Virus record (IMG/VR): IMGVR_UViG_3300018430_000021
Coordinates: 227,103-291,102 of that record
DNA: 64,000 bases
Direction: 5' to 3' (one strand)
From: a virus
Taxonomy: Duplodnaviria; Caudoviricetes
In this document: positions 28,052-63,866 of the stretch, one piece after another
Numbering within the stretch: the first letter of the stretch is position 1
Layout of the letters: the number at the start of each line of letters is the position of its first letter
Notes under the pieces: model-generated
Database searches by the model: none
Seen by the model: only the letters and a program-made list of their open reading frames with translations
Told to the model about the DNA's origin: nothing
Translations under genes and position numbers: made by a program

Positions 28052-28414
28052 ATGATTAACAAGAATGTTCTAATTGATGGAATTCATATTCCAAATACAA
28101 ACAAGACCGCTACGGCGAATCTTGAATTTTTGGTAAATACCGTCAAGAAGTTGACGGATGTAAACAGTAAAAGCACTATCAGCGTCGGTCAATATAAGAG
28201 CGACAGATATTACGCCAAAGCTCTTGTAAATGAACGTTTCATGTTTACGTGCGGACTTGAACTCAAGGATTCTGATTATGGCTGTCAAATTACCAGAATC
28301 GGAAAAATCGGTTGGACTAAGGAAGACATCGTTCGAAAGCCTGTGTTCGGAATGCTTACGGACTATCTCGATACCTATATTTCCGTAGCTACACGAATCA
28401 AGTCGTACTTGTAG
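28052..28414 (+). CDS. hypothetical protein
   Basis: Preceded by TTGACA-17-TATATT; 120 aa ORF. Confidence 0.6.
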   Translation: MINKNVLIDGIHIPNTNKTATANLEFLVNTVKKLTDVNSKSTISVGQYKSDRYYAKALVNERFMFTCGLELKDSDYGCQITRIGKIGWTKEDIVRKPVFGMLTDYLDTYISVATRIKSYL

Positions 28415-28432
28415 CTTTAAAATTAATCATAG

Positions 28433-28517
28433 TGGCCAAGGTGGGATTCGAACCCACACGCCCTTTCGGACCGATGCTTCTAAGGCACCGTTGTCTCGCC
28501 AGTTCCATCACTCGGCC
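28433..28517 (-). tRNA. tRNA-Leu(TAG)
   Basis: Cloverleaf, loop CTTAGAA, long variable arm, A73. Confidence 0.9.
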
Positions 28518-28523
28518 ATTTAG

Positions 28524-28612
28524 TCTGCTGGGTGGGAATCGAACCCACAAGCCATTAAGGCGGAAGCATCTGAGTCTTCTGTGTCTACCATAAACTATTC
28601 CACCACCAGCGG
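28524..28612 (-). tRNA. tRNA-Leu(CAG), enlarged D-loop
   Basis: Loop CTCAGAT, long variable arm, TTCGA T-loop. Confidence 0.8.
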
Positions 28613-28622
28613 ATAATTGTAG

Positions 28623-28707
28623 CGGAAGCGGAAGGGCTCGAACCTTCAAGCAGATTTCTCCACGGCACTTTAGCAAAGTGCTGGCTTACCTATTAGCCTA
28701 CGCTTCC
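28623..28707 (-). tRNA. tRNA-Ser(GCT)
   Basis: Loop TTGCTAA, long variable arm, G73. Confidence 0.9.
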
Positions 28708-28716
28708 AAAATTTTA

Positions 28717-28798
28717 TCCTTAGGGTGGGACTCGAACCCACATGCCTTTCGGCCGCGGCTTTTGAGACCGCTGCGTATACCAATTCCGCCACCTAAGG
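28717..28798 (-). tRNA. tRNA-Leu(CAA)
   Basis: Loop CTCAAAA. Confidence 0.9.
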
Positions 28799-28801
28799 TT
28801 A

Positions 28802-28884
28802 TCGTCAGAGCGGGACTCGAACCCGTACGTCCTGAGGACACTGGCCTCTCATGCCAGCGCGTCTACCAATTCCGCCACCTGACG
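28802..28884 (-). tRNA. tRNA-Leu(GAG)
   Basis: Loop ATGAGAG. Confidence 0.9.
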
Positions 28885-28892
28885 TTAGTTTA

Positions 28893-28974
28893 TCGGTACG
28901 GGGAGACTCGCACTCCCAATCCCTTTCGGGCACGGACCTCTCAAGCCCGCATGTATACATTCCATCACATACCG
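28893..28974 (-). tRNA. tRNA-Leu(GAG), atypical T-loop
   Basis: Loop TTGAGAG; T-loop TGCGAGT. Confidence 0.8.
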
Positions 28975-28982
28975 TTATATTA

Positions 28983-29072
28983 TCGGTCTGAAGGGACTCG
29001 AACCCCCAATCCGTGCTTATCTCGGCCACCGGGTTTAAGCCGATGCTGTATTCCAATTCCAATCACAGACCG
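28983..29072 (-). tRNA. tRNA-Leu(TAA)
   Basis: Loop CTTAAAC. Confidence 0.9.
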
Positions 29073-29078
29073 CTATAG

Positions 29079-29151
29079 CAGGAGTACCAGGATTCGAACC
29101 CAGACCAGTGGACTTGGAAACCACTATGCTAGCCATTACAAACATACTCCT
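29079..29151 (-). tRNA. tRNA-Trp(CCA)
   Basis: Loop TTCCAAG, A1-U72, G73. Confidence 0.85.
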
Positions 29152-29188
29152 AAATAAAAAATTAAGGCTCCCATTGTGTGGGAACCTT
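29152..29188 (-). terminator. attenuator terminator of the Leu/Ser/Trp tRNA operon
   Basis: AAGGTTCCCA-CACAA-TGGGAGCCTT followed by AATTTTTTATTT, directly before tRNA-Trp. Confidence 0.8.
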
Positions 29189-29217
29189 ATAAACTTTCAT
29201 ACGATTAAAAAATCGAA

Positions 29218-29304
29218 CTACTTAGTTCCCACTAGACTACGACGCAATAACCAGCTGAGGAGCAGGCTACTGAGTAGGAGGAGTGTCAAACTAAGTGTCT
29301 TCAT
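29218..29304 (-). CDS. leader peptide MKTLSLTLLLLSSLLLSWLLRRSLVGTK
   Basis: RBS AAAGG; 12 Leu using all six codons, 5 Ser all AGY, 1 Trp; too short for the ORF track. Confidence 0.85.
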   Translation of the reverse strand: MKTLSLTLLLLSSLLLSWLLRRSLVGTK

Positions 29305-30281
29305 TTTTAAACCTTTTATATTATATATAAGAAATTTTTTGTTGTTTTTGTTTTTACGTTGTAAATATAGCAAATAATTTTTCTTTTGTAAACCCCTATG
29401 GGTAAATTTTTTTCTCGAGCGGAAGTTTCAGCTTATCGGAAATATCGTTATACATTAACGGCAATTCTTTTAATGTATGACTTTCAATCTCTCCGTCTAC
29501 AGCTTCAAGAAATTCATCAATAACGGGTTTAAGGTGATAAATTGTTACCGGCCAGTTACGGCCTTCACGATTCTGTCCCCATTCATGAAAAACTACATCT
29601 ATAGAAAACGTAGTAAAATACATCCAGTGATTAACCCCGAAACAAACCATTTGCGGGCACGGTTGGCCATAGCCATATTTCTTCTGGACATTTTTAATTG
29701 CATCGTAAAATTTTCGATTATCTGTAATACCTTTAATCTTATAGTTAATGGTATACTTATATTGCCAATCGAAAATATATTCAGGTTCATTATGCATCTG
29801 ATTCAACCTTTTTAGGTGTTCCCCATTTCTTATTCCATTCGGATTCAAGCATCTTGTCATCGTAATCGATATTTCCGTCTTCGTCGATACAATGTGTCGT
29901 ATAAGTAACCGTCACATCTCGACCTACATAGAATGTTCTTTCACAATGACTGCATTCAATCTTGTCTTCATCGGACAATTCCCAAGAATCCGTCTGGACC
30001 GCACCGCAATAAGGACAGACCGCCTCTTCGGTATTGGCATTAAAATAACTGATCGATTTATCTTCAAACTGCATCTGGTTTACCTTGACCTTCTGACATA
30101 AGTGCGGCATGATTTGCCGCATTATATTTTTTCAATGTTCTAAGATTAAAGATACACCCGTCTTCACCTTTTCGGTTAGTAGTGAATCTTTCATCATCGG
30201 TGTCCCATCCGAAAATGCCGCAAATCATGCATCCTTCTTCAGAGTCATAATCAGTAAACGGACATTTATTACAACGCATAA

Positions 30282-30824
30282 TTATTTCCTGGTAATAAAT
30301 TCGTTATATTCCTGTAAAGTTGACTTGCTGTCTGATTTTTCCGGCTCATCACCGATGAAATAATCAATAATATGTTTCGGAATCGTACAGACAAAAATAT
30401 TGCCGACCCATATAATAATTTTTAACGGCAATAAAATGAACATAGCACCTGAACAACAAATAATGCCATATGAATAAAACGTAAATAACAATAAATCTTT
30501 ACGGTCGTTAATTTTGATTTCGTTATAACTACAACCGTAGTTATAATAATTTGACATCTTAACAATCGACGATTCACCGTTTAACATAGCGATAAAGAAT
30601 GCAAAACCGAAACAGCATAATGCCGACCATGCATAAAGAGCCAGTTGTACAGTAAAATTATCCGACCACAGTTCTTTATATGCTACAAGATTACCGATAA
30701 CACTGCCTACCCAGCAAATCATGGAAAAAATAACTTTACCGAAGTAAGTGCTATTTTCATGGTTGTTTATGTATGAATATAGAACGTAAAGCTGCAGCTT
30801 CTTAATCATTGTTATCCTCGCCAA
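30282..30824 (-). CDS. multi-pass membrane protein (paralogue family with 33916, 34572, 40427, possibly 55210)
   Basis: Several hydrophobic helices, IPxxIxDYxxG, C-terminal LxEY/FNxFL. Confidence 0.65.
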   Translation of the reverse strand: MARITMIKKLQLYVLYSYINNHENSTYFGKVIFSMICWVGSVIGNLVAYKELWSDNFTVQLALYAWSALCCFGFAFFIAMLNGESSIVKMSNYYNYGCSYNEIKINDRKDLLLFTFYSYGIICCSGAMFILLPLKIIIWVGNIFVCTIPKHIIDYFIGDEPEKSDSKSTLQEYNEFITRK

Positions 30825-31357
30825 ATTTTACCCATGTCTTTTCATAAGCTTCGGGATGCTCAAGAATATAATCGAGATCCTCGTTTACAATATCCGGTAA
30901 TACCTTAAGATTCTTAAACTTATAGGTACCGCAATCACCGTCAAAGTTCGGTTCTTCTTCCAGAATCAAATCGAACATATTGTAATCGTCTACCGTGACG
31001 ATACTTCTACGGAACTGTTCATGAAGATGAGCATACAGTTTTGCAGCCGCAATCAGGTCTTCGCTTACGTACATTCCATAACGGGTCCACCACTGCGGTT
31101 CAATAGGATGTTGTCTTTTGTCGACGAATAAAATGATATAATGCATGTTAGAAATATAATAGTTTTTACAAGACTTGTCAACCCTTTTTAATAAATAAGA
31201 AAGGTTTACAAACGCGGTACGTAATGCCGCAGTACGGGTCAGAAAAATTCCGGAAAGGTTTTCCTCTTAAAAAACCCATAGCGACTGAACATGAAGTGCC
31301 ATATTGGTTGGCTATATTGGTCGAAATCTGACATCATTCTATTAAAAGGAAAACTAC

Positions 31358-32149
31358 ATGATTAAAAAAGACATAACAGCAAAAGAGGCCAATATTATCG
31401 GAGCCTGCTCAAAAAATATCCGACAATTCTGTAAGTACACAAAGATCCTCACCGAAGAGGGAACAAGTACATTCAAGCCCTACAAATTCCAAAAAGAATT
31501 ACTTGACAAGTGGATTTCGACCATGGAAGAAAAACAACACATGGGAAAACGAAACCATCTGGTAAAAACCGTAAGGCAATGCGGTATTACAACAGCTTTG
31601 GCTGTTTATGCCCTCTGGTATGCGATATTTAATCCGGATAAATGTATCGGTATTCTGGCACCAAAAGAAGCACAGTCATGTGAAATCTTGTACAGAATAA
31701 AAGACATCTATAATAATCTTCCGGATTTTTTAAAACCGAAAACATTAACAAATAACAAGCAAGTAATACGATTTGAAAACAAGACACAAATCTTCGCTTG
31801 TGCCGCACATTCAACAAGTATACGGGGAAAATCTGTCGATTTAATGATTATCGACGATTTCGCGCATATGAGTGACAATCTGGCAGAAGACTTTATGATG
31901 TGTGTATTTCCTACACAAGCATCTCGCGCATACGCCCAGATGATTATCGTATCTACACCAACAACTAAATCACACCCTTTTTATAAAATCTATGAAAAGG
32001 CATCCAATAAAATGAATTCATTTAATATTACCGATATTCCATGGAACTGCATCAAACGCAGAAACGCTGAATGGAAAAAGAGAATAATTCGCGAATGCGG
32101 TATAGACTTCTTCAATAGCGAATTTTCCGGTAAATTTAAAGAAGAATAA
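31358..32149 (+). CDS. T4 gp17-like terminase large subunit ATPase domain only (degenerate)
   Basis: PYKFQKE, RQCGITT (cf. RQxGKT), IRGKS, IIDDFAH (cf. DEFAF), IIVSTP; no nuclease domain. Confidence 0.75.
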   Translation: MIKKDITAKEANIIGACSKNIRQFCKYTKILTEEGTSTFKPYKFQKELLDKWISTMEEKQHMGKRNHLVKTVRQCGITTALAVYALWYAIFNPDKCIGILAPKEAQSCEILYRIKDIYNNLPDFLKPKTLTNNKQVIRFENKTQIFACAAHSTSIRGKSVDLMIIDDFAHMSDNLAEDFMMCVFPTQASRAYAQMIIVSTPTTKSHPFYKIYEKASNKMNSFNITDIPWNCIKRRNAEWKKRIIRECGIDFFNSEFSGKFKEE

Positions 32150-43940: not shown

Positions 43941-43952
43941 AAAAATTTTTAG

Positions 43953-44043
43953 TGGACTCGACGGGATTCGAACCCGTATGCGGTGGCTTCCTTGCGTACA
44001 GCCTCCTGGTAATCCGGTTATTCACTCTTTAGCCTACGTGCCC
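43953..44043 (-). ncRNA. tRNA-like RNA with Ala-type acceptor (G3:U70, A73) and no clear anticodon
   Basis: GGGCACG/CGAGTCC-A acceptor, normal T-arm, central arm capped by a GCAA tetraloop. Confidence 0.6.
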
Positions 44044-44253: not shown

Positions 44254-44333
44254 TACATCAGACAGGGATCGAACCTGCATTTTCAGCTCCAGTTACGGTT
44301 ACAAGATTCGTAGTCTTGCTCGGCTACTGATGT
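44254..44333 (-). tRNA. D-armless tRNA-Arg(ACG)-like
   Basis: Perfect 7-bp acceptor, CAAGA-CTACGAA-TCTTG anticodon arm, T-arm; only 8 nt in place of the D-arm and a 23-nt variable region. Confidence 0.65.
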
Positions 44334-44419: not shown

Positions 44420-45187
44420 TTATTCATATTTACCAATTAAATTTTTATTAGAACTAAAATGTCTTCTTTTTGTATTAGATTTAAAAATTGGTATATATTT
44501 TTTAAATCGCACATAAATTGCATTTTTTAAAACATGTAATTCATTTGCAAAATCTTCAAGTTTATAGTAATTTCCTGAATGATATTTGTCCCATAATTCC
44601 CTAGATAATTTCAAAGATTCATTATATCTTGTAATTGTAAATGTTGTTTTATGTTTTTTATGTTTTTTATGTTTTTTTACACCATATACAATTTTGTTTG
44701 ATTCACCATGAAAAAGGTTTCGACCTTCAATCCAGAAATCTTCTAATGGTTTTTCTTTAAACTTCTTAGATTCTCCAGTATTACGATTTGTATACCATTT
44801 AGTTCCAAACTGTGAATTTTTATTACCTTGTTGATTCTTACTTGTTATTTTACTTATCGTTTTTGCAAACTCCATGCGTAATGCTTCATATGCACGAGAA
44901 TTTATATAACGATGTTTTTCTTTAGTCGTTTGCCCTTGCATTCGCCAAAGTGCACATAACATTTTATTTCTTTCAATAGTTCCTTTATCATACATTTTAA
45001 CAAGTAACCAATGACAGATAAAATGTTCACGTGCAGTTAATCTAACAAGATTTTCATTATCGTTTGTACCTCCTAATGATTTTGGTTGAATATGATGTTT
45101 TTCATAATAACCTACATATCTGTTCCCATTTTCTGTTTCCCTTTTTGCTTTTTCAATTATCTTATAATATATAGCTTTATAATTCAT
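44420..45187 (-). CDS. free-standing HNH homing endonuclease inside the tRNA operon
   Basis: YEKHHIQPKSLGG..D..NLVRLTAREHFICHWLL; AT-rich. Confidence 0.85.
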   Translation of the reverse strand: MNYKAIYYKIIEKAKRETENGNRYVGYYEKHHIQPKSLGGTNDNENLVRLTAREHFICHWLLVKMYDKGTIERNKMLCALWRMQGQTTKEKHRYINSRAYEALRMEFAKTISKITSKNQQGNKNSQFGTKWYTNRNTGESKKFKEKPLEDFWIEGRNLFHGESNKIVYGVKKHKKHKKHKTTFTITRYNESLKLSRELWDKYHSGNYYKLEDFANELHVLKNAIYVRFKKYIPIFKSNTKRRHFSSNKNLIGKYE

Positions 45188-45316: not shown

Positions 45317-45352
45317 AAAATAAAAAAGATTCCTGTGAGCGACACAGGAATC
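45317..45352 (-). terminator. attenuator terminator of the Asp/Arg/Lys/Gly/His tRNA operon
   Basis: GATTCCTGTG-TCGCT-CACAGGAATC followed by TTTTTTATTTT. Confidence 0.85.
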
Positions 45353-45378
45353 AATCTAAAACTTTTTACAGTTAAAAA

Positions 45379-45480
45379 CTAGATGACCCTGTGCTTGTGT
45401 CGATCCTTATCATGCTTACCGAAACCTCGTCCGTCGCGGCGAGTCTTGCAATCATGAGTGTCAACTACAAACTTAGTCAT
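45379..45480 (-). CDS. leader peptide MTKFVVDTHDCKTRRDGRGFGKHDKDRHKHRVI
   Basis: RBS AAAGGA; 5 Asp, 4 His, 5 Lys (all AAG), 5 Arg (4 CGN), 3 Gly. Confidence 0.85.
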   Translation of the reverse strand: MTKFVVDTHDCKTRRDGRGFGKHDKDRHKHRVI

Positions 45481-45530: not shown

Positions 45531-45657
45531 AATAAACAGCGAGCAGTAACTTGTGGAAATAAGAGTTGGACTCGAACCAACGATCTTTGCATTGCTGCAA
45601 CGCTCTAACCAACTGAGCTATCTCATTGATTATAGGAACCGCTTGTGCTGTTCTATT
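45531..45657 (-). ncRNA. anticodon-less tRNA-like RNA closed by the GCA-N6-GUUCCUAU module
   Basis: D- and T-arms intact; anticodon arm is TTGCA-GCAA-TGCAA; outer stem carries the module. Confidence 0.7.
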
Positions 45658-50857: not shown

Positions 50858-50858
50858 A

Positions 50859-50893
50859 TAAAAGAAAAGTTCCTGTGCTTGTGCACAGGAACC
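50859..50893 (-). terminator. attenuator terminator of the Ala/Glu/Phe tRNA operon
   Basis: GTTCCTGTGC-ACAA-GCACAGGAAC followed by TTTTCTTTT. Confidence 0.85.
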
Positions 50894-50917
50894 GTTTTTA
50901 AAACTCTAATCGGTTAA

Positions 50918-51031
50918 CTACCTGATCCTATGCACTGTATTTGAATCAAATGCTTCAAACGCTGCAGCTGCAAATTCAGCTGCGGCACGTTCTGCTGCAA
51001 AAAATTCATGTTCAAATACGTTCATAGTCAT
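50918..51031 (-). CDS. leader peptide MTMNVFEHEFFAAERAAAEFAAAAFEAFDSNTVHRIR
   Basis: RBS AAAGGT; 10 Ala, 6 Phe and 5 Glu out of 37 residues. Confidence 0.88.
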   Translation of the reverse strand: MTMNVFEHEFFAAERAAAEFAAAAFEAFDSNTVHRIR

Positions 51032-51215: not shown

Positions 51216-51327
51216 TGGGGAAGGCAGGATTCGAACCTACGACACACGCCTTGGAATGGAAATAGGAACGTTATATGCATTTCTACGAAACGTAAATACC
51301 GTTGCTCTACCACTGAGCTACTTCCCC
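51216..51327 (-). ncRNA. tRNA scaffold with the module inserted in the anticodon arm
   Basis: Canonical acceptor, D- and T-arms; about 40 extra nt containing GCATATAACGTTCCTAT. Confidence 0.7.
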
Positions 51328-51332
51328 GAGTG

Positions 51333-51644
51333 GTTAACGCGAAATGTATGAACTCATCTAAAAAATAATGCTTTTGATAGGAACATTCTTTGCGTTAACG
51401 ATGTTAAATATAGTAAAAAGTTGTTGGTTTGTCAACCCCTTTTTTAAAATATTTTTAGCCGGCGAGACTGGATTCGAACCAATAACCCAAAGTACCCTTT
51501 AGATAGGAAGCATTGGTGCTGAAAGCGAATACTAAATCTTAAACTTTTGCTCTACCGATTGAGCTACTCGCCGAGATGTTAACGCGAAATGTATAAACTG
51601 ATCGAAAATAATGTTTTTTTGATAGGAACATTCTTTGCGTTAAC
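51333..51644 (-). repeat. two copies (51333-51399, 51578-51644) of a ~67-nt hairpin RNA carrying the module, each after its own promoter
   Basis: GTTAACGC...GCGTTAAC ends; GCAAAGAATGTTCCTAT in both. Confidence 0.8.
51459..51573 (-). ncRNA. tRNA-Pro-like scaffold with the module inserted in the anticodon loop
   Basis: CGGCGAG/CTCGCCG acceptor; AAAGT/ACTTT stem around an insert with GCACCAATGCTTCCTAT. Confidence 0.7.
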
Positions 51645-53035: not shown

Positions 53036-53070
53036 TAAAAATTAAAAGGTTCCTGTTGTGCACAGGAACC
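53036..53070 (-). terminator. terminator in the alaS leader
   Basis: GGTTCCTGT-GCACA-ACAGGAACC followed by TTTTAATTTTT, just before the alaS RBS. Confidence 0.8.
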
Positions 53071-53105
53071 AAAGTTTAGTTAATGAATATACCCATACAC
53101 ATATA

Positions 53106-53165
53106 TTATGTCATAATATATGCGGCTGCTGCGAAAATGCGAGTATTTAATATATTCATCGTCAT
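53106..53165 (-). CDS. alaS leader peptide MTMNILNTRIFAAAAYIMT
   Basis: GCA GCA GCC GCA run; MTMN start shared with the Ala/Glu/Phe leader. Confidence 0.8.
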   Translation of the reverse strand: MTMNILNTRIFAAAAYIMT

Positions 53166-59413: not shown

Positions 59414-59526
59414 TCGGAGAGGCACGGCTCGAACGTGCGACCTGCGGGTTATAAGCCATTAATAGGAACAACCTGTGCCATGAGCGGGTAGTAAAGTACG
59501 CTGCTCTACCACTGAGCTACTCTCCA
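59414..59526 (-). ncRNA. tRNA scaffold with the module inserted in the anticodon arm
   Basis: Canonical acceptor, D and T arms; insert with GCACAGGTTGTTCCTAT. Confidence 0.7.
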
Positions 59527-59973: not shown

Positions 59974-60131
59974 TCAAAACTAAAAATATGGTAAGTGGCC
60001 GACACTGTTCAAGACACGCATTCAATTCCTCGTGCACTAGGCAGAACTCTGGAATTTACTTAATGTCAGCCTTAAGGCACACTTACCGTACCTACAGTCT
60101 TTTCTTTTAAGTAGAAAGAAAATATATGTAA

Positions 60132-60250
60132 AAATAAACTCAGTTGCTTTAAAGTAGAAGAACATGAAATAACTCGGCTGCTTTGAAGTAGAAGAGCTTT
60201 GAAATAACTCAGTTCTTTGAAGTAGAAGAACCTGAAATAACTCAGTTTTT
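60132..60250. repeat. about 3.5 tandem copies of a 33-35 nt unit (AAATAACTCAGTTGCTTTGAAGTAGAAGAACNTG)
   Basis: Head-to-tail repeats without spacers in a non-coding region. Confidence 0.85.
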
Positions 60251-60613
60251 TATGGAAACTTTGAAAAACCGTTTTCAAACACACTGCCGGAATCCCGATT
60301 CTCCACCGGCCATGACGTCTATCAACTGCACATTCTATCGGTCGACTTCTTATAGGGTACAAACTCCGTCATCTAGCATTTTATTGATCGTCTAGCTATA
60401 TCAAACTCACAAAATACTCTTCATGCCACGCTGCTACATGAATTCAGCGCTCACTAAACGTAGTATACATCGATTTCTCTATACAAGAGGTTTAGCTCAA
60501 CGCGTTGTCAGGCCAGGGCACTTACGCATTCCCGAGTGTTATCCCAGCTCTTCAGTCTTAATGATGGTGCGTCCGTCAAAAAGCACACGCGCTTAAGTAT
60601 ATTATATATAAAA

Positions 60614-62857: not shown

Positions 62858-62933
62858 TCGGCGTACCTGGATTCGAACCAGGGAAACCTCTTGATCCCAA
62901 ATCAAGCGCTCTACCAGACTGAGCTACACACCG
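62858..62933 (-). tRNA. tRNA-Pro(TGG)
   Basis: Loop TTTGGGA, C1-G72, A73. Confidence 0.9.
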
Positions 62934-62985
62934 CAAGTTTTTAAGGTGGTTCCACCACCAGCTGACTACAGCTATAACGTTTTAG

Positions 62986-63058
62986 CTGTCCTTCCTGGAC
63001 TCAAACCAGGGACCAAGTGATTAACAGTCACCGACTCTACCTACTGAGCTAAAGGACA
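62986..63058 (-). tRNA. tRNA-Asn(GTT)
   Basis: Loop CTGTTAA, U1-A72, G73. Confidence 0.9.
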
Positions 63059-63140
63059 ATGTTTTAATCATTCATTTACGTCGTATAATATAGTAAATTA
63101 TGCTCCGTTTGTAAACCCCTTTAATTAAAAAAATTTTTAA

Positions 63141-63866
63141 TCAACTGAGTTTTTCTTTAATACTTTCCCAAGTTAAATTGTTTTTATCCAATATGATTAT
63201 TCGTATTCCATTCTGTTGTTGTACAATCGCAATCTTTTCAACATCAGTAATACCAAATTTTTTAGTTTTATTATTTATTAAATAATCATTTTTTGGATCT
63301 AGATATACATCATATTCAGGAAGGTAAAAATCAGGATAATAACGATGTTTTATACCTTTAGTATCTTCCCAAATAAAATATGTAGGTCTTTCCCATTTTA
63401 CTTGGTTTTCATCAAGCGTTTTTGCTACCTCAAATTCATATGTAGAATCAAGACTTGTTCCTTTATATTCTATAGTTTTTGAAGTATGCCAACCACCTAA
63501 ATGACGTTCAAATGCAATTTCTCTCAGTTTTTGTTTATGCTCTTCAGATTGCGGATGACTAAAAATTCGTTTTCCTTCATCAGTTCCTTTATAACGCTCT
63601 GAAAATGTTTCACCTTGTTTCCTTACGCGTTCATCACTATCTTTAGTTAATCCTTTATTCCAAGCATAACTACCCGGAGCTAATTTTCTTTTACCATTTT
63701 CATCTATAATATATTTTTGACTAGTTTTAATAGTATTTAAATCACATTCCTTTTTATGTTCATTTAAAAGACGTCTAGTCCTAAATATATTTTGACAAAA
63801 TGGGCAAATCCAATTATTATATGCATTTGCTTGTTCTCTAACAACTTTATATCTACAATTTTTCAT
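63141..63866 (-). CDS. putative homing endonuclease (Zn finger, NUMOD-like, PD-(D/E)xK/TnsA-like)
   Basis: CPFC..F...L..H, AWNKGLTK, DSTYE...LD...W.RP, YYPDFYLP...YLDPK; AT-rich and located between tRNAs. Confidence 0.7.
   Translation of the reverse strand: MKNCRYKVVREQANAYNNWICPFCQNIFRTRRLLNEHKKECDLNTIKTSQKYIIDENGKRKLAPGSYAWNKGLTKDSDERVRKQGETFSERYKGTDEGKRIFSHPQSEEHKQKLREIAFERHLGGWHTSKTIEYKGTSLDSTYEFEVAKTLDENQVKWERPTYFIWEDTKGIKHRYYPDFYLPEYDVYLDPKNDYLINNKTKKFGITDVEKIAIVQQQNGIRIIILDKNNLTWESIKEKLS

Follow-up and report, generated by a model that had tools for sequence, protein, structure and literature searches.

A probable leader-peptide attenuator upstream of a Trp/Leu/Ser tRNA array in a T4-like phage, with related units at other tRNA arrays of the same genome

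The Trp/Leu/Ser tRNA array of a T4-like phage lies directly behind what we read, with considerable confidence, as a ribosome-mediated transcription attenuator of the trp-operon type that gates tRNA genes. This would be a known mechanism, leader-peptide attenuation, in a new variant in which the regulated genes are tRNAs. The leader-peptide attenuator put forward in the original prediction held at every point on which the sequence bears, namely the anatomy of the unit, the antiterminator, the sister units, the relatives and the split of the Ser codons by box. The DNA itself shows how the unit is built, that its codons match the array, that alternative pairings are available, that the design recurs within the genome and that leaders and arrays co-vary among relatives; translation of the leader, the direction of the switch and its physiological trigger are what we infer from them.

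The window, the 64,000-nucleotide stretch analysed here, is the last 64 kb of a 291,102-bp phage contig and has a G+C content of 38.7%. The contig carries 42 tRNA genes (default ARAGORN) and a T4-type terminase with ~35% identity to the terminases of T4-like phages, and is itself a T4-like phage. A DNA search of the GenBank phages with positions 28400-31400 returned tRNA-sized matches only and no related genome. Relatives were gathered from IMG/VR and metagenome contigs by means of the promoter element described below; looser scans of viral and metagenome contigs with the promoter pattern gave mostly chance matches and were then filtered. Among the matches listed, the relatives comprised a complete 415,750-bp genome (G002), contigs of 230, 165, 136 and 424 kb, and many fragments. 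The parts of the unit, all on the minus strand and given from the promoter to the array, are the following:

29364-29392: sigma-70-like promoter, TTTACA, 17 nt, TG-TATATT, with 10/12 matches and the TG extension
29319-29330: conserved TTATATATAATA element in the interval between promoter and Shine-Dalgarno sequence, kept in relatives
29312-29316: Shine-Dalgarno sequence AAAGG, 7 nt 5' of the ATG
29218-29304: leader ORF of 28 codons plus TAG, from ORF and codon analysis
29288-29299: segment 1, predicted to pair with the 3' end of the leader (1:2 hairpin)
29245-29295: sensor block, codons 4-20, with 11 Leu, 4 Ser(AGY), 1 Trp and 1 Thr
29224-29232: segment 2, GTGGGAACT, codons 25-27, predicted partner of segment 1 or segment 3
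29179-29189: segment 3, 5' arm of the terminator
29163-29173: segment 4, 3' arm of the terminator
29153-29162: T-run of the terminator, ending 1 nt before tRNA-Trp
28432-29151: array of Trp(cca), Leu(taa), two Leu(gag), Leu(caa), Ser(gct), a weak Leu(cag) and Leu(tag)

At the 5' end of the unit, the interval 29392-29304 holds the promoter and, directly 3' of it, the start of a short ORF with its ribosome-binding site. Shine-Dalgarno-like 4-mers precede 117 of the 231 long ORFs of the genome, while random positions carry them in 8.8% of cases. The promoter element GGTTTACAAA...TATATTTA has three copies in the window against none expected, each upstream of a tRNA unit. The TTATATATAATA element is matched 13 times against 1.9 expected. 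Its exact copies precede leaders (29330, 45507 and 51058), one non-coding unit and an HNH-like ORF; a conserved 5'-UTR and a second promoter, of T4-late-like type, are both candidate readings of it. At 59975-60611 on the minus strand, TTATATATAATA is followed by ~600 nt without a leader ORF, then by imperfect tandem repeats of ~35 nt (at about 60140-60270) and a tRNA-Met. Rfam returned no match for this region, which may represent an unknown structured RNA.

The original prediction had counted in the leader 12 Leu residues spelled with all six Leu codons, five Ser that are all AGT or AGC, and one TGG, and these counts are exact (the Leu codons are CTC five times, CTA and TTG twice each, and CTT, CTG and TTA once each). 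It had further claimed that the match to the downstream array is made at the level of codons. Congruently, the leader's own array reads 18 of the 27 codons that follow the ATG, and a leader that uses AGY is paired with an array that carries Ser(gct). When same-length sliding windows were taken from the long ORFs of the phage as background (80,714 windows), the mean was 3.2 cognate codons, with a standard deviation of 1.8 and a maximum of 13. Under the codon usage of the genome, five out of five Ser codons of the AGY type have a probability of P = 0.012, and at least five CTC among 12 Leu codons have a probability of P = 0.011; the sole duplicated gene of the array is Leu(gag), the reader of CTC and CTT. 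The non-cognate codons, which make up about one third to one half of the leaders, fall in the conserved N- and C-terminal parts that coincide with segments 1 and 2. An identical copy of the 28-codon leader is present in L001, and diverged homologues were found at L047:1377-1463:+, L116:2854-2940:+, L042:15171-15260:- and L124:7515-7607:-.

The array opens with tRNA-Trp(cca) at 29151-29078 in the default ARAGORN output. Most of the gene list of the original prediction was recovered by the same run, that is, Trp, Leu(taa), two Leu(gag), Leu(caa), Ser(gct) and Leu(tag); the exception is the weak Leu(CAG) at 28525-28605, which appeared with relaxed ARAGORN settings only and is absent from the default ARAGORN and Rfam calls. 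CTG can also be read by Leu(tag). The ARAGORN list bears out the statement that the array has no tRNA reading TCN. Since the terminator lies 11 nt before tRNA-Trp and leaves no space for a further promoter, the array would be expressed only through read-through. Short ORFs are common and this one has no database support, so that it could have been a chance ORF beside an ordinary terminator or insulator. We give this explanation almost no credence, because 0 of the 80,714 background windows reach the observed match of 18 cognate codons, the design is repeated five times in the genome and conserved with co-variation in many contigs, and a fixed terminator at that distance from the array would silence it.

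Next to the attenuator reading of the leader stands the structure of its RNA. The intrinsic terminator at 29189-29163 has 11 pairs, a loop of 5 and a T-run, and it was detected independently; a small hairpin lies between the leader ORF and the 11-bp terminator hairpin. The original prediction had the leader end pair over 9 bp with the terminator arm, and this pairing is indeed available between GTGGGAACT (29232-29224) and GGTTCCCAC in the 5' arm, with eight Watson-Crick pairs and one G-U pair. For the whole leader the minimum free energy is -50.6 kcal/mol (z = -4.9), in a predicted fold that combines a long 1:2 hairpin with the terminator. Without segments 1 and 4, the 2:3 pairing is the predicted fold (-18.3 kcal/mol). 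In a transcript that ends before segment 4, 2:3 is preferred even without a ribosome, whereas the full-length minimum is 1:2 plus terminator.

A ribosome footprint of 30 nt was then scanned along the transcript ending before segment 4. All nine pairs of 2:3 are formed with the A site on codons 2-20; segment 2 is covered from codon 21, and no 2:3 pairs are left from codon 22. The comparison of folds with and without a footprint, which the original prediction had suggested, thus places the 2:3 boundary at the end of the Leu/Ser/Trp block (codons 4-20), and the Ala and Tyr leaders have similar boundaries. As judged in silico only, a ribosome that has reached the leader's end hides the upstream strand of the antiterminator. 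When the sequence 5' of each terminator was searched for the best partner of its 5' arm, this partner lay between -19 and +7 relative to the last position of the stop codon in ~22 of 28 distinct leaders, which belong to six tRNA-leader classes whose arm sequences differ from class to class. The antiterminator is weak or displaced in the Thr class of G004 and L141 and in the Tyr class of G002. Where classes differ in sequence, the best fit of each segment 2 is to the segment 3 of its own class.

At equilibrium the antiterminator is in every case less stable than the terminator, by 2-13 kcal/mol, so the switch must be kinetic, as it is in classical attenuators. The same observation, together with the fact that the direction of the switch is deduced from sequence, leaves room for a different sign or machinery, in which a stalled ribosome uncouples from RNA polymerase and read-through falls, for example through Rho or RNA cleavage, or the hairpin acts as a processing or stability element. 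We consider this quite improbable: the hairpins are canonical intrinsic terminators with T-runs, the complement of the 5' arm is placed exactly under the terminating ribosome in six classes, and the cognate block extends just as far as the last codon at which 2:3 pairing is still allowed.

Comparison with relatives adds to the picture of the pairings. In G002, segment 2 reads GTAGGGACT, with two synonymous substitutions that preserve pairing with an altered segment 3, and segment 4 is altered at the matching column, which gives one fully compensatory pair per helix. In L124 the GTAGGGAC motif is retained though the reading frame and the peptide differ. With five sequences and one compensatory column, the covariation counts of the Leu class have little power, being equalled by 41-54 of 500 shuffles. 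On this sequence comparison, the synonymous changes of segment 2 in G002 and the frame-shifted motif in L124 are evidence of selection at the RNA level.

The proposed attenuator would work as follows. Transcription would start at the 29392-29364 promoter, and possibly also at the TTATATATAATA element; a ribosome would load at the Shine-Dalgarno sequence and translate the 28-codon leader. With Leu-, Ser(AGY)- and Trp-tRNAs plentiful, it would reach the stop codon and cover segment 2 (29232-29224), the 3:4 terminator would fold, and RNA polymerase would halt 1-10 nt before tRNA-Trp. If any one of the Leu, Ser(AGY) or Trp tRNAs were scarce, the ribosome would stall within codons 4-20, the free segment 2 would pair with the newly made segment 3, and the array would be transcribed in the absence of a terminator. 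The new tRNAs would relieve the stall and so close a negative feedback loop. The trigger could be that host tRNAs are lost or cleaved during infection, or that they suit the codon use of the phage poorly.

The same layout was found at three other tRNA arrays of the genome and at alaS, each with its own amino acids. Those within the window, on the minus strand, are:

45328-45480: sister attenuator, with leader 45480-45379 and terminator 45352-45328, T-run at 45318-45327
45316-43400: array of two Asp, an Arg(ACG)-like gene, two Lys(ctt), three Gly and His
50868-51031: sister attenuator, with leader 51031-50918 and terminator 50893-50868, T-run at 50858-50867
50857-49909: Phe/Glu/Ala array
53038-53165: alaS attenuator, with a 19-codon leader at 53165-53106 and terminator 53070-53048

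The 45480-45379 leader (33 codons) is rich in Asp, Lys, Gly, His and Arg(CGN), and all five of its Lys codons are AAG. The 51031-50918 leader (37 codons), rich in Ala, Glu and Phe, has 21 of 36 codons cognate to its array, a value that none of 77,978 background windows attained. The fourth leader lies outside the window, 5' of two Tyr genes, Cys, Met and three Ser genes (gga, tga, cga), and its Ser codons are all TCN. Ser is therefore split by codon box, AGY in the leader of the Ser(gct) array and TCN in the Tyr/Cys leader, which mirrors the split of the tRNA genes. With a separate sensor at each array, supply would be tuned for every block and down to single isoacceptors (Ser AGY against TCN, Lys AAG, Gln CAG). 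The alaS gene (53022-51685, minus strand) encodes a 445-aa alanyl-tRNA synthetase core (PF01411, E = 1e-183), and its leader contains four consecutive Ala codons. Because the ATG of this leader is only 6 nt past the -10 box, the leader mRNA may be leaderless.

The same hardware could serve a general gate that reports amino-acid supply or general translation capacity, with charged tRNA, ribosome availability or time after infection as the signal in place of the abundance of particular tRNAs; all tRNA units would then be gated by time or nutrition. To a stalled ribosome a missing and an uncharged tRNA are indistinguishable, the alaS attenuator of the same build is a classical sensor of charged tRNA, and the promoter elements are common to all units. 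It also follows from the sensing of charged tRNA that amino-acid starvation would open the gate too, without benefit to the phage. We nevertheless hold a general gate to be unlikely, since sensors specific to isoacceptors and arrays that track tRNA gene content in evolution would be needless for it, and only tRNA abundance closes the feedback loop through the regulated genes.

Several features of the sister units and arrays were observed in passing. The Tyr/Cys/Ser(TCN) leader outside the window (genome C1, about 215310-215215, minus strand) has an in-frame TAA at codon 9, where the relative L019:660-749:+ has TCA. We looked for an ochre suppressor tRNA that would read this TAA and found none; the G001 candidate looks like Lys(TTT). 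TAA is the main stop codon of the genome (121 of 154 long ORFs), and since no suppressor was found, the TAA looks like a recent nonsense change or an assembly variant.

The Arg(ACG)-like gene of the Asp/Lys array (44254-44333, minus strand) scores 33.6 bits with the Rfam tRNA model, is D-armless with an unusual long insert and does not appear in the ARAGORN output. Four CGC/CGA codons are present in the leader of its array, and a normal Arg(acg) gene stands in the corresponding array of G004, L200 and L253. Another tRNA-like gene, at 45554-45627 on the minus strand (56.6 bits with Rfam), has an anticodon loop of abnormal form, in which ARAGORN reads an anticodon of two bases. A sigma-70-like promoter stands on one side of it and the Asp/Lys leader on the other, and this position is kept in G002, G003 and L009; its role may be that of a signal for processing and not of a decoder. 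Three tRNA genes of 112-115 nt (51216-51327, 51459-51573 and 59414-59526, minus strand; Rfam) have inserts of ~33-41 nt in or near the anticodon loop, which are possibly introns. Between the two Lys(ctt) genes, 43950-44043 on the minus strand gave a weak match to the tmRNA clan (20.4 bits, below the gathering score), and several other spacers between the tRNA genes of the arrays look structured.

Two ORFs on the minus strand, 44420-45187 and 63141-63866, interrupt runs of tRNA genes. A weak HNH match (E = 1e-3) was obtained for the first, which also has a TTATATATAATA element upstream, and homologues of the inserted ORFs occur inside arrays of G001, G004, L009 and L011; the ORFs look like homing endonucleases active in remodelling the arrays. 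At 62858-63120 (minus strand), Asn, Pro, Thr, Met and Val tRNAs lie directly 3' of a sigma-70-like promoter without a leader, while G001, G002, G004 and L141 have a Thr/Asn/Pro(/Met/Val) leader at the corresponding position. A wrap-around or terminal repeat that would hide a Thr/Asn/Pro leader was sought in the 291,102-bp contig and not found. The leader at this position may have been removed by the adjacent inserted ORF.

In the relatives, the content of leaders and arrays changes together. For the leaders of G000, G002 and G004 the cognate fraction against their own array was 0.43-0.71, compared with 0.00-0.32 against the other arrays of the same genome, and the own array was the best match in 14 of 14. 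The leaders of the matches listed fall into six tRNA-leader classes, the sixth of which (L149:7176-7262:+) is rich in Arg, Ser(TCN), His and Gly codons and stands 5' of Arg, Ser, Gly and His tRNAs. The clearest exchange concerns Gln(ctg) and Cys(gca). In G002 and G003 these genes are in the Trp/Leu array; two CAG and two Cys codons are present in the Leu-class leader (L042:15171-15260:-), and none of either in the Tyr leaders of G002 and G003. In G004 and L019 they are in the Tyr array; there the Tyr leaders have three CAG and 3-5 Cys codons and the Leu leader has none. In L124, Cys is present and Gln absent in array and leader alike. Where an Ala/Glu/Phe array includes Val and Ile genes as well, its leader has 3-4 Val and 5-6 Ile codons, against two Val and one Ile in the G000 Ala/Glu/Phe leader, all of them outside the sensor block. 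Leaders of Thr/Asn/Pro arrays with Met and Val genes contain Met and Val codons, and L141 has two tandem sub-arrays, each with a fitting leader. When the 63 tRNA arrays in the loci gathered were screened blind, this phage family alone had arrays preceded by a short ORF in which 45% or more of the codons are cognate.

These comparisons also bear on the alternative named in the original prediction, that the leader encodes a membrane toxin or, more broadly, a small hydrophobic membrane peptide (toxin, holin-like or similar) whose proximity to tRNA genes is incidental. The Leu-rich peptide does have a mean Kyte-Doolittle value of 0.98 and basic residues after its hydrophobic run. However, the leaders at the other arrays are polar or charged (-1.47 to 0.26), and composition tracks tRNA content and not peptide fold. 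Moreover, the 3' end of the leader is conserved as RNA across a frame change, and the partition of Ser codons by box is inexplicable by a function of the peptide. A membrane peptide is therefore very improbable.

The leader attenuators of trpL, hisL, leuL and pheL consist of a short ORF with regulatory codons, alternative 1:2, 2:3 and 3:4 pairings and an intrinsic terminator, and the position of the ribosome sets the fold. The phage unit resembles them in its promoter-proximal short ORF, four predicted segments and terminator. It differs in that it would regulate tRNA genes instead of biosynthetic enzymes, so that the sensed molecule would be the product itself, and in that its sensor lists several amino acids and particular codon boxes, with one copy per array. 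At gathering scores and at E <= 5, Rfam returned tRNAs only and no Leu, His, Thr, Trp or Phe leader, T-box or other cis-regulator. Multivalent attenuators are known from the ilvGMEDA leader (Ile/Leu/Val) and the thr leader (Thr/Ile), where the mix of codons reflects a shared pathway. As in these, the phage leader holds the codons of several amino acids and a shortage of any would open the gate; unlike them, its codon mix mirrors the list of downstream tRNA genes and is re-edited as the list changes.

In E. coli pheST, the pheM leader attenuates an aminoacyl-tRNA synthetase through the codons of its own amino acid. The alaS unit of the phage (53165-53038) would be a direct analogue, whereas the units at the arrays would control tRNAs. 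The phage unit would share with T-box riboswitches the sensing of tRNA status and the choice between terminator and antiterminator upstream of translation-related genes; T-boxes bind uncharged tRNA directly and need no translation, whereas the phage unit has a Shine-Dalgarno sequence and an ORF. The tRNA genes of T4, T5 and other large phages are clustered as polycistronic precursors, as they are here, and we know of no leader-peptide control for the tRNA clusters of these phages or for the tRNA genes of E. coli. Full-text literature searches found no published account of leader-peptide attenuation of tRNA genes. A possible Phe leader at E. coli pheV and pheU was also considered and was rejected, as the promoter lies immediately 5' of the tRNA and there is no leader ORF.

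The known control of tRNA genes acts at promoters, which respond to growth rate and the stringent response, and through processing. Feedback on tRNA transcription codon by codon would add a new level to this control and would account for the sorting of phage tRNA genes into amino-acid-specific blocks. We lean slightly towards a broader view for giant phages, in which tRNA supply is modular and codon-resolved, each block being an inducible cassette whose leader lists its tRNAs and serves as an arms-race sensor. If this is true, stalling after the action of host anticodon nucleases or tRNA decay would induce exactly the replacement tRNAs, which offers a testable link between phage tRNAs and host tRNA depletion or cleavage. 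Leader content would then annotate atypical tRNA genes, and whether odd tRNA-like genes such as the D-armless Arg(ACG) function could be predicted from it. The leaders would be compact natural codon-specific sensors, reusable as reporters of tRNA availability, and their architecture is simple enough for the screening of all viral metagenomes. Such control would show a virus monitoring the speed of decoding at chosen codons.
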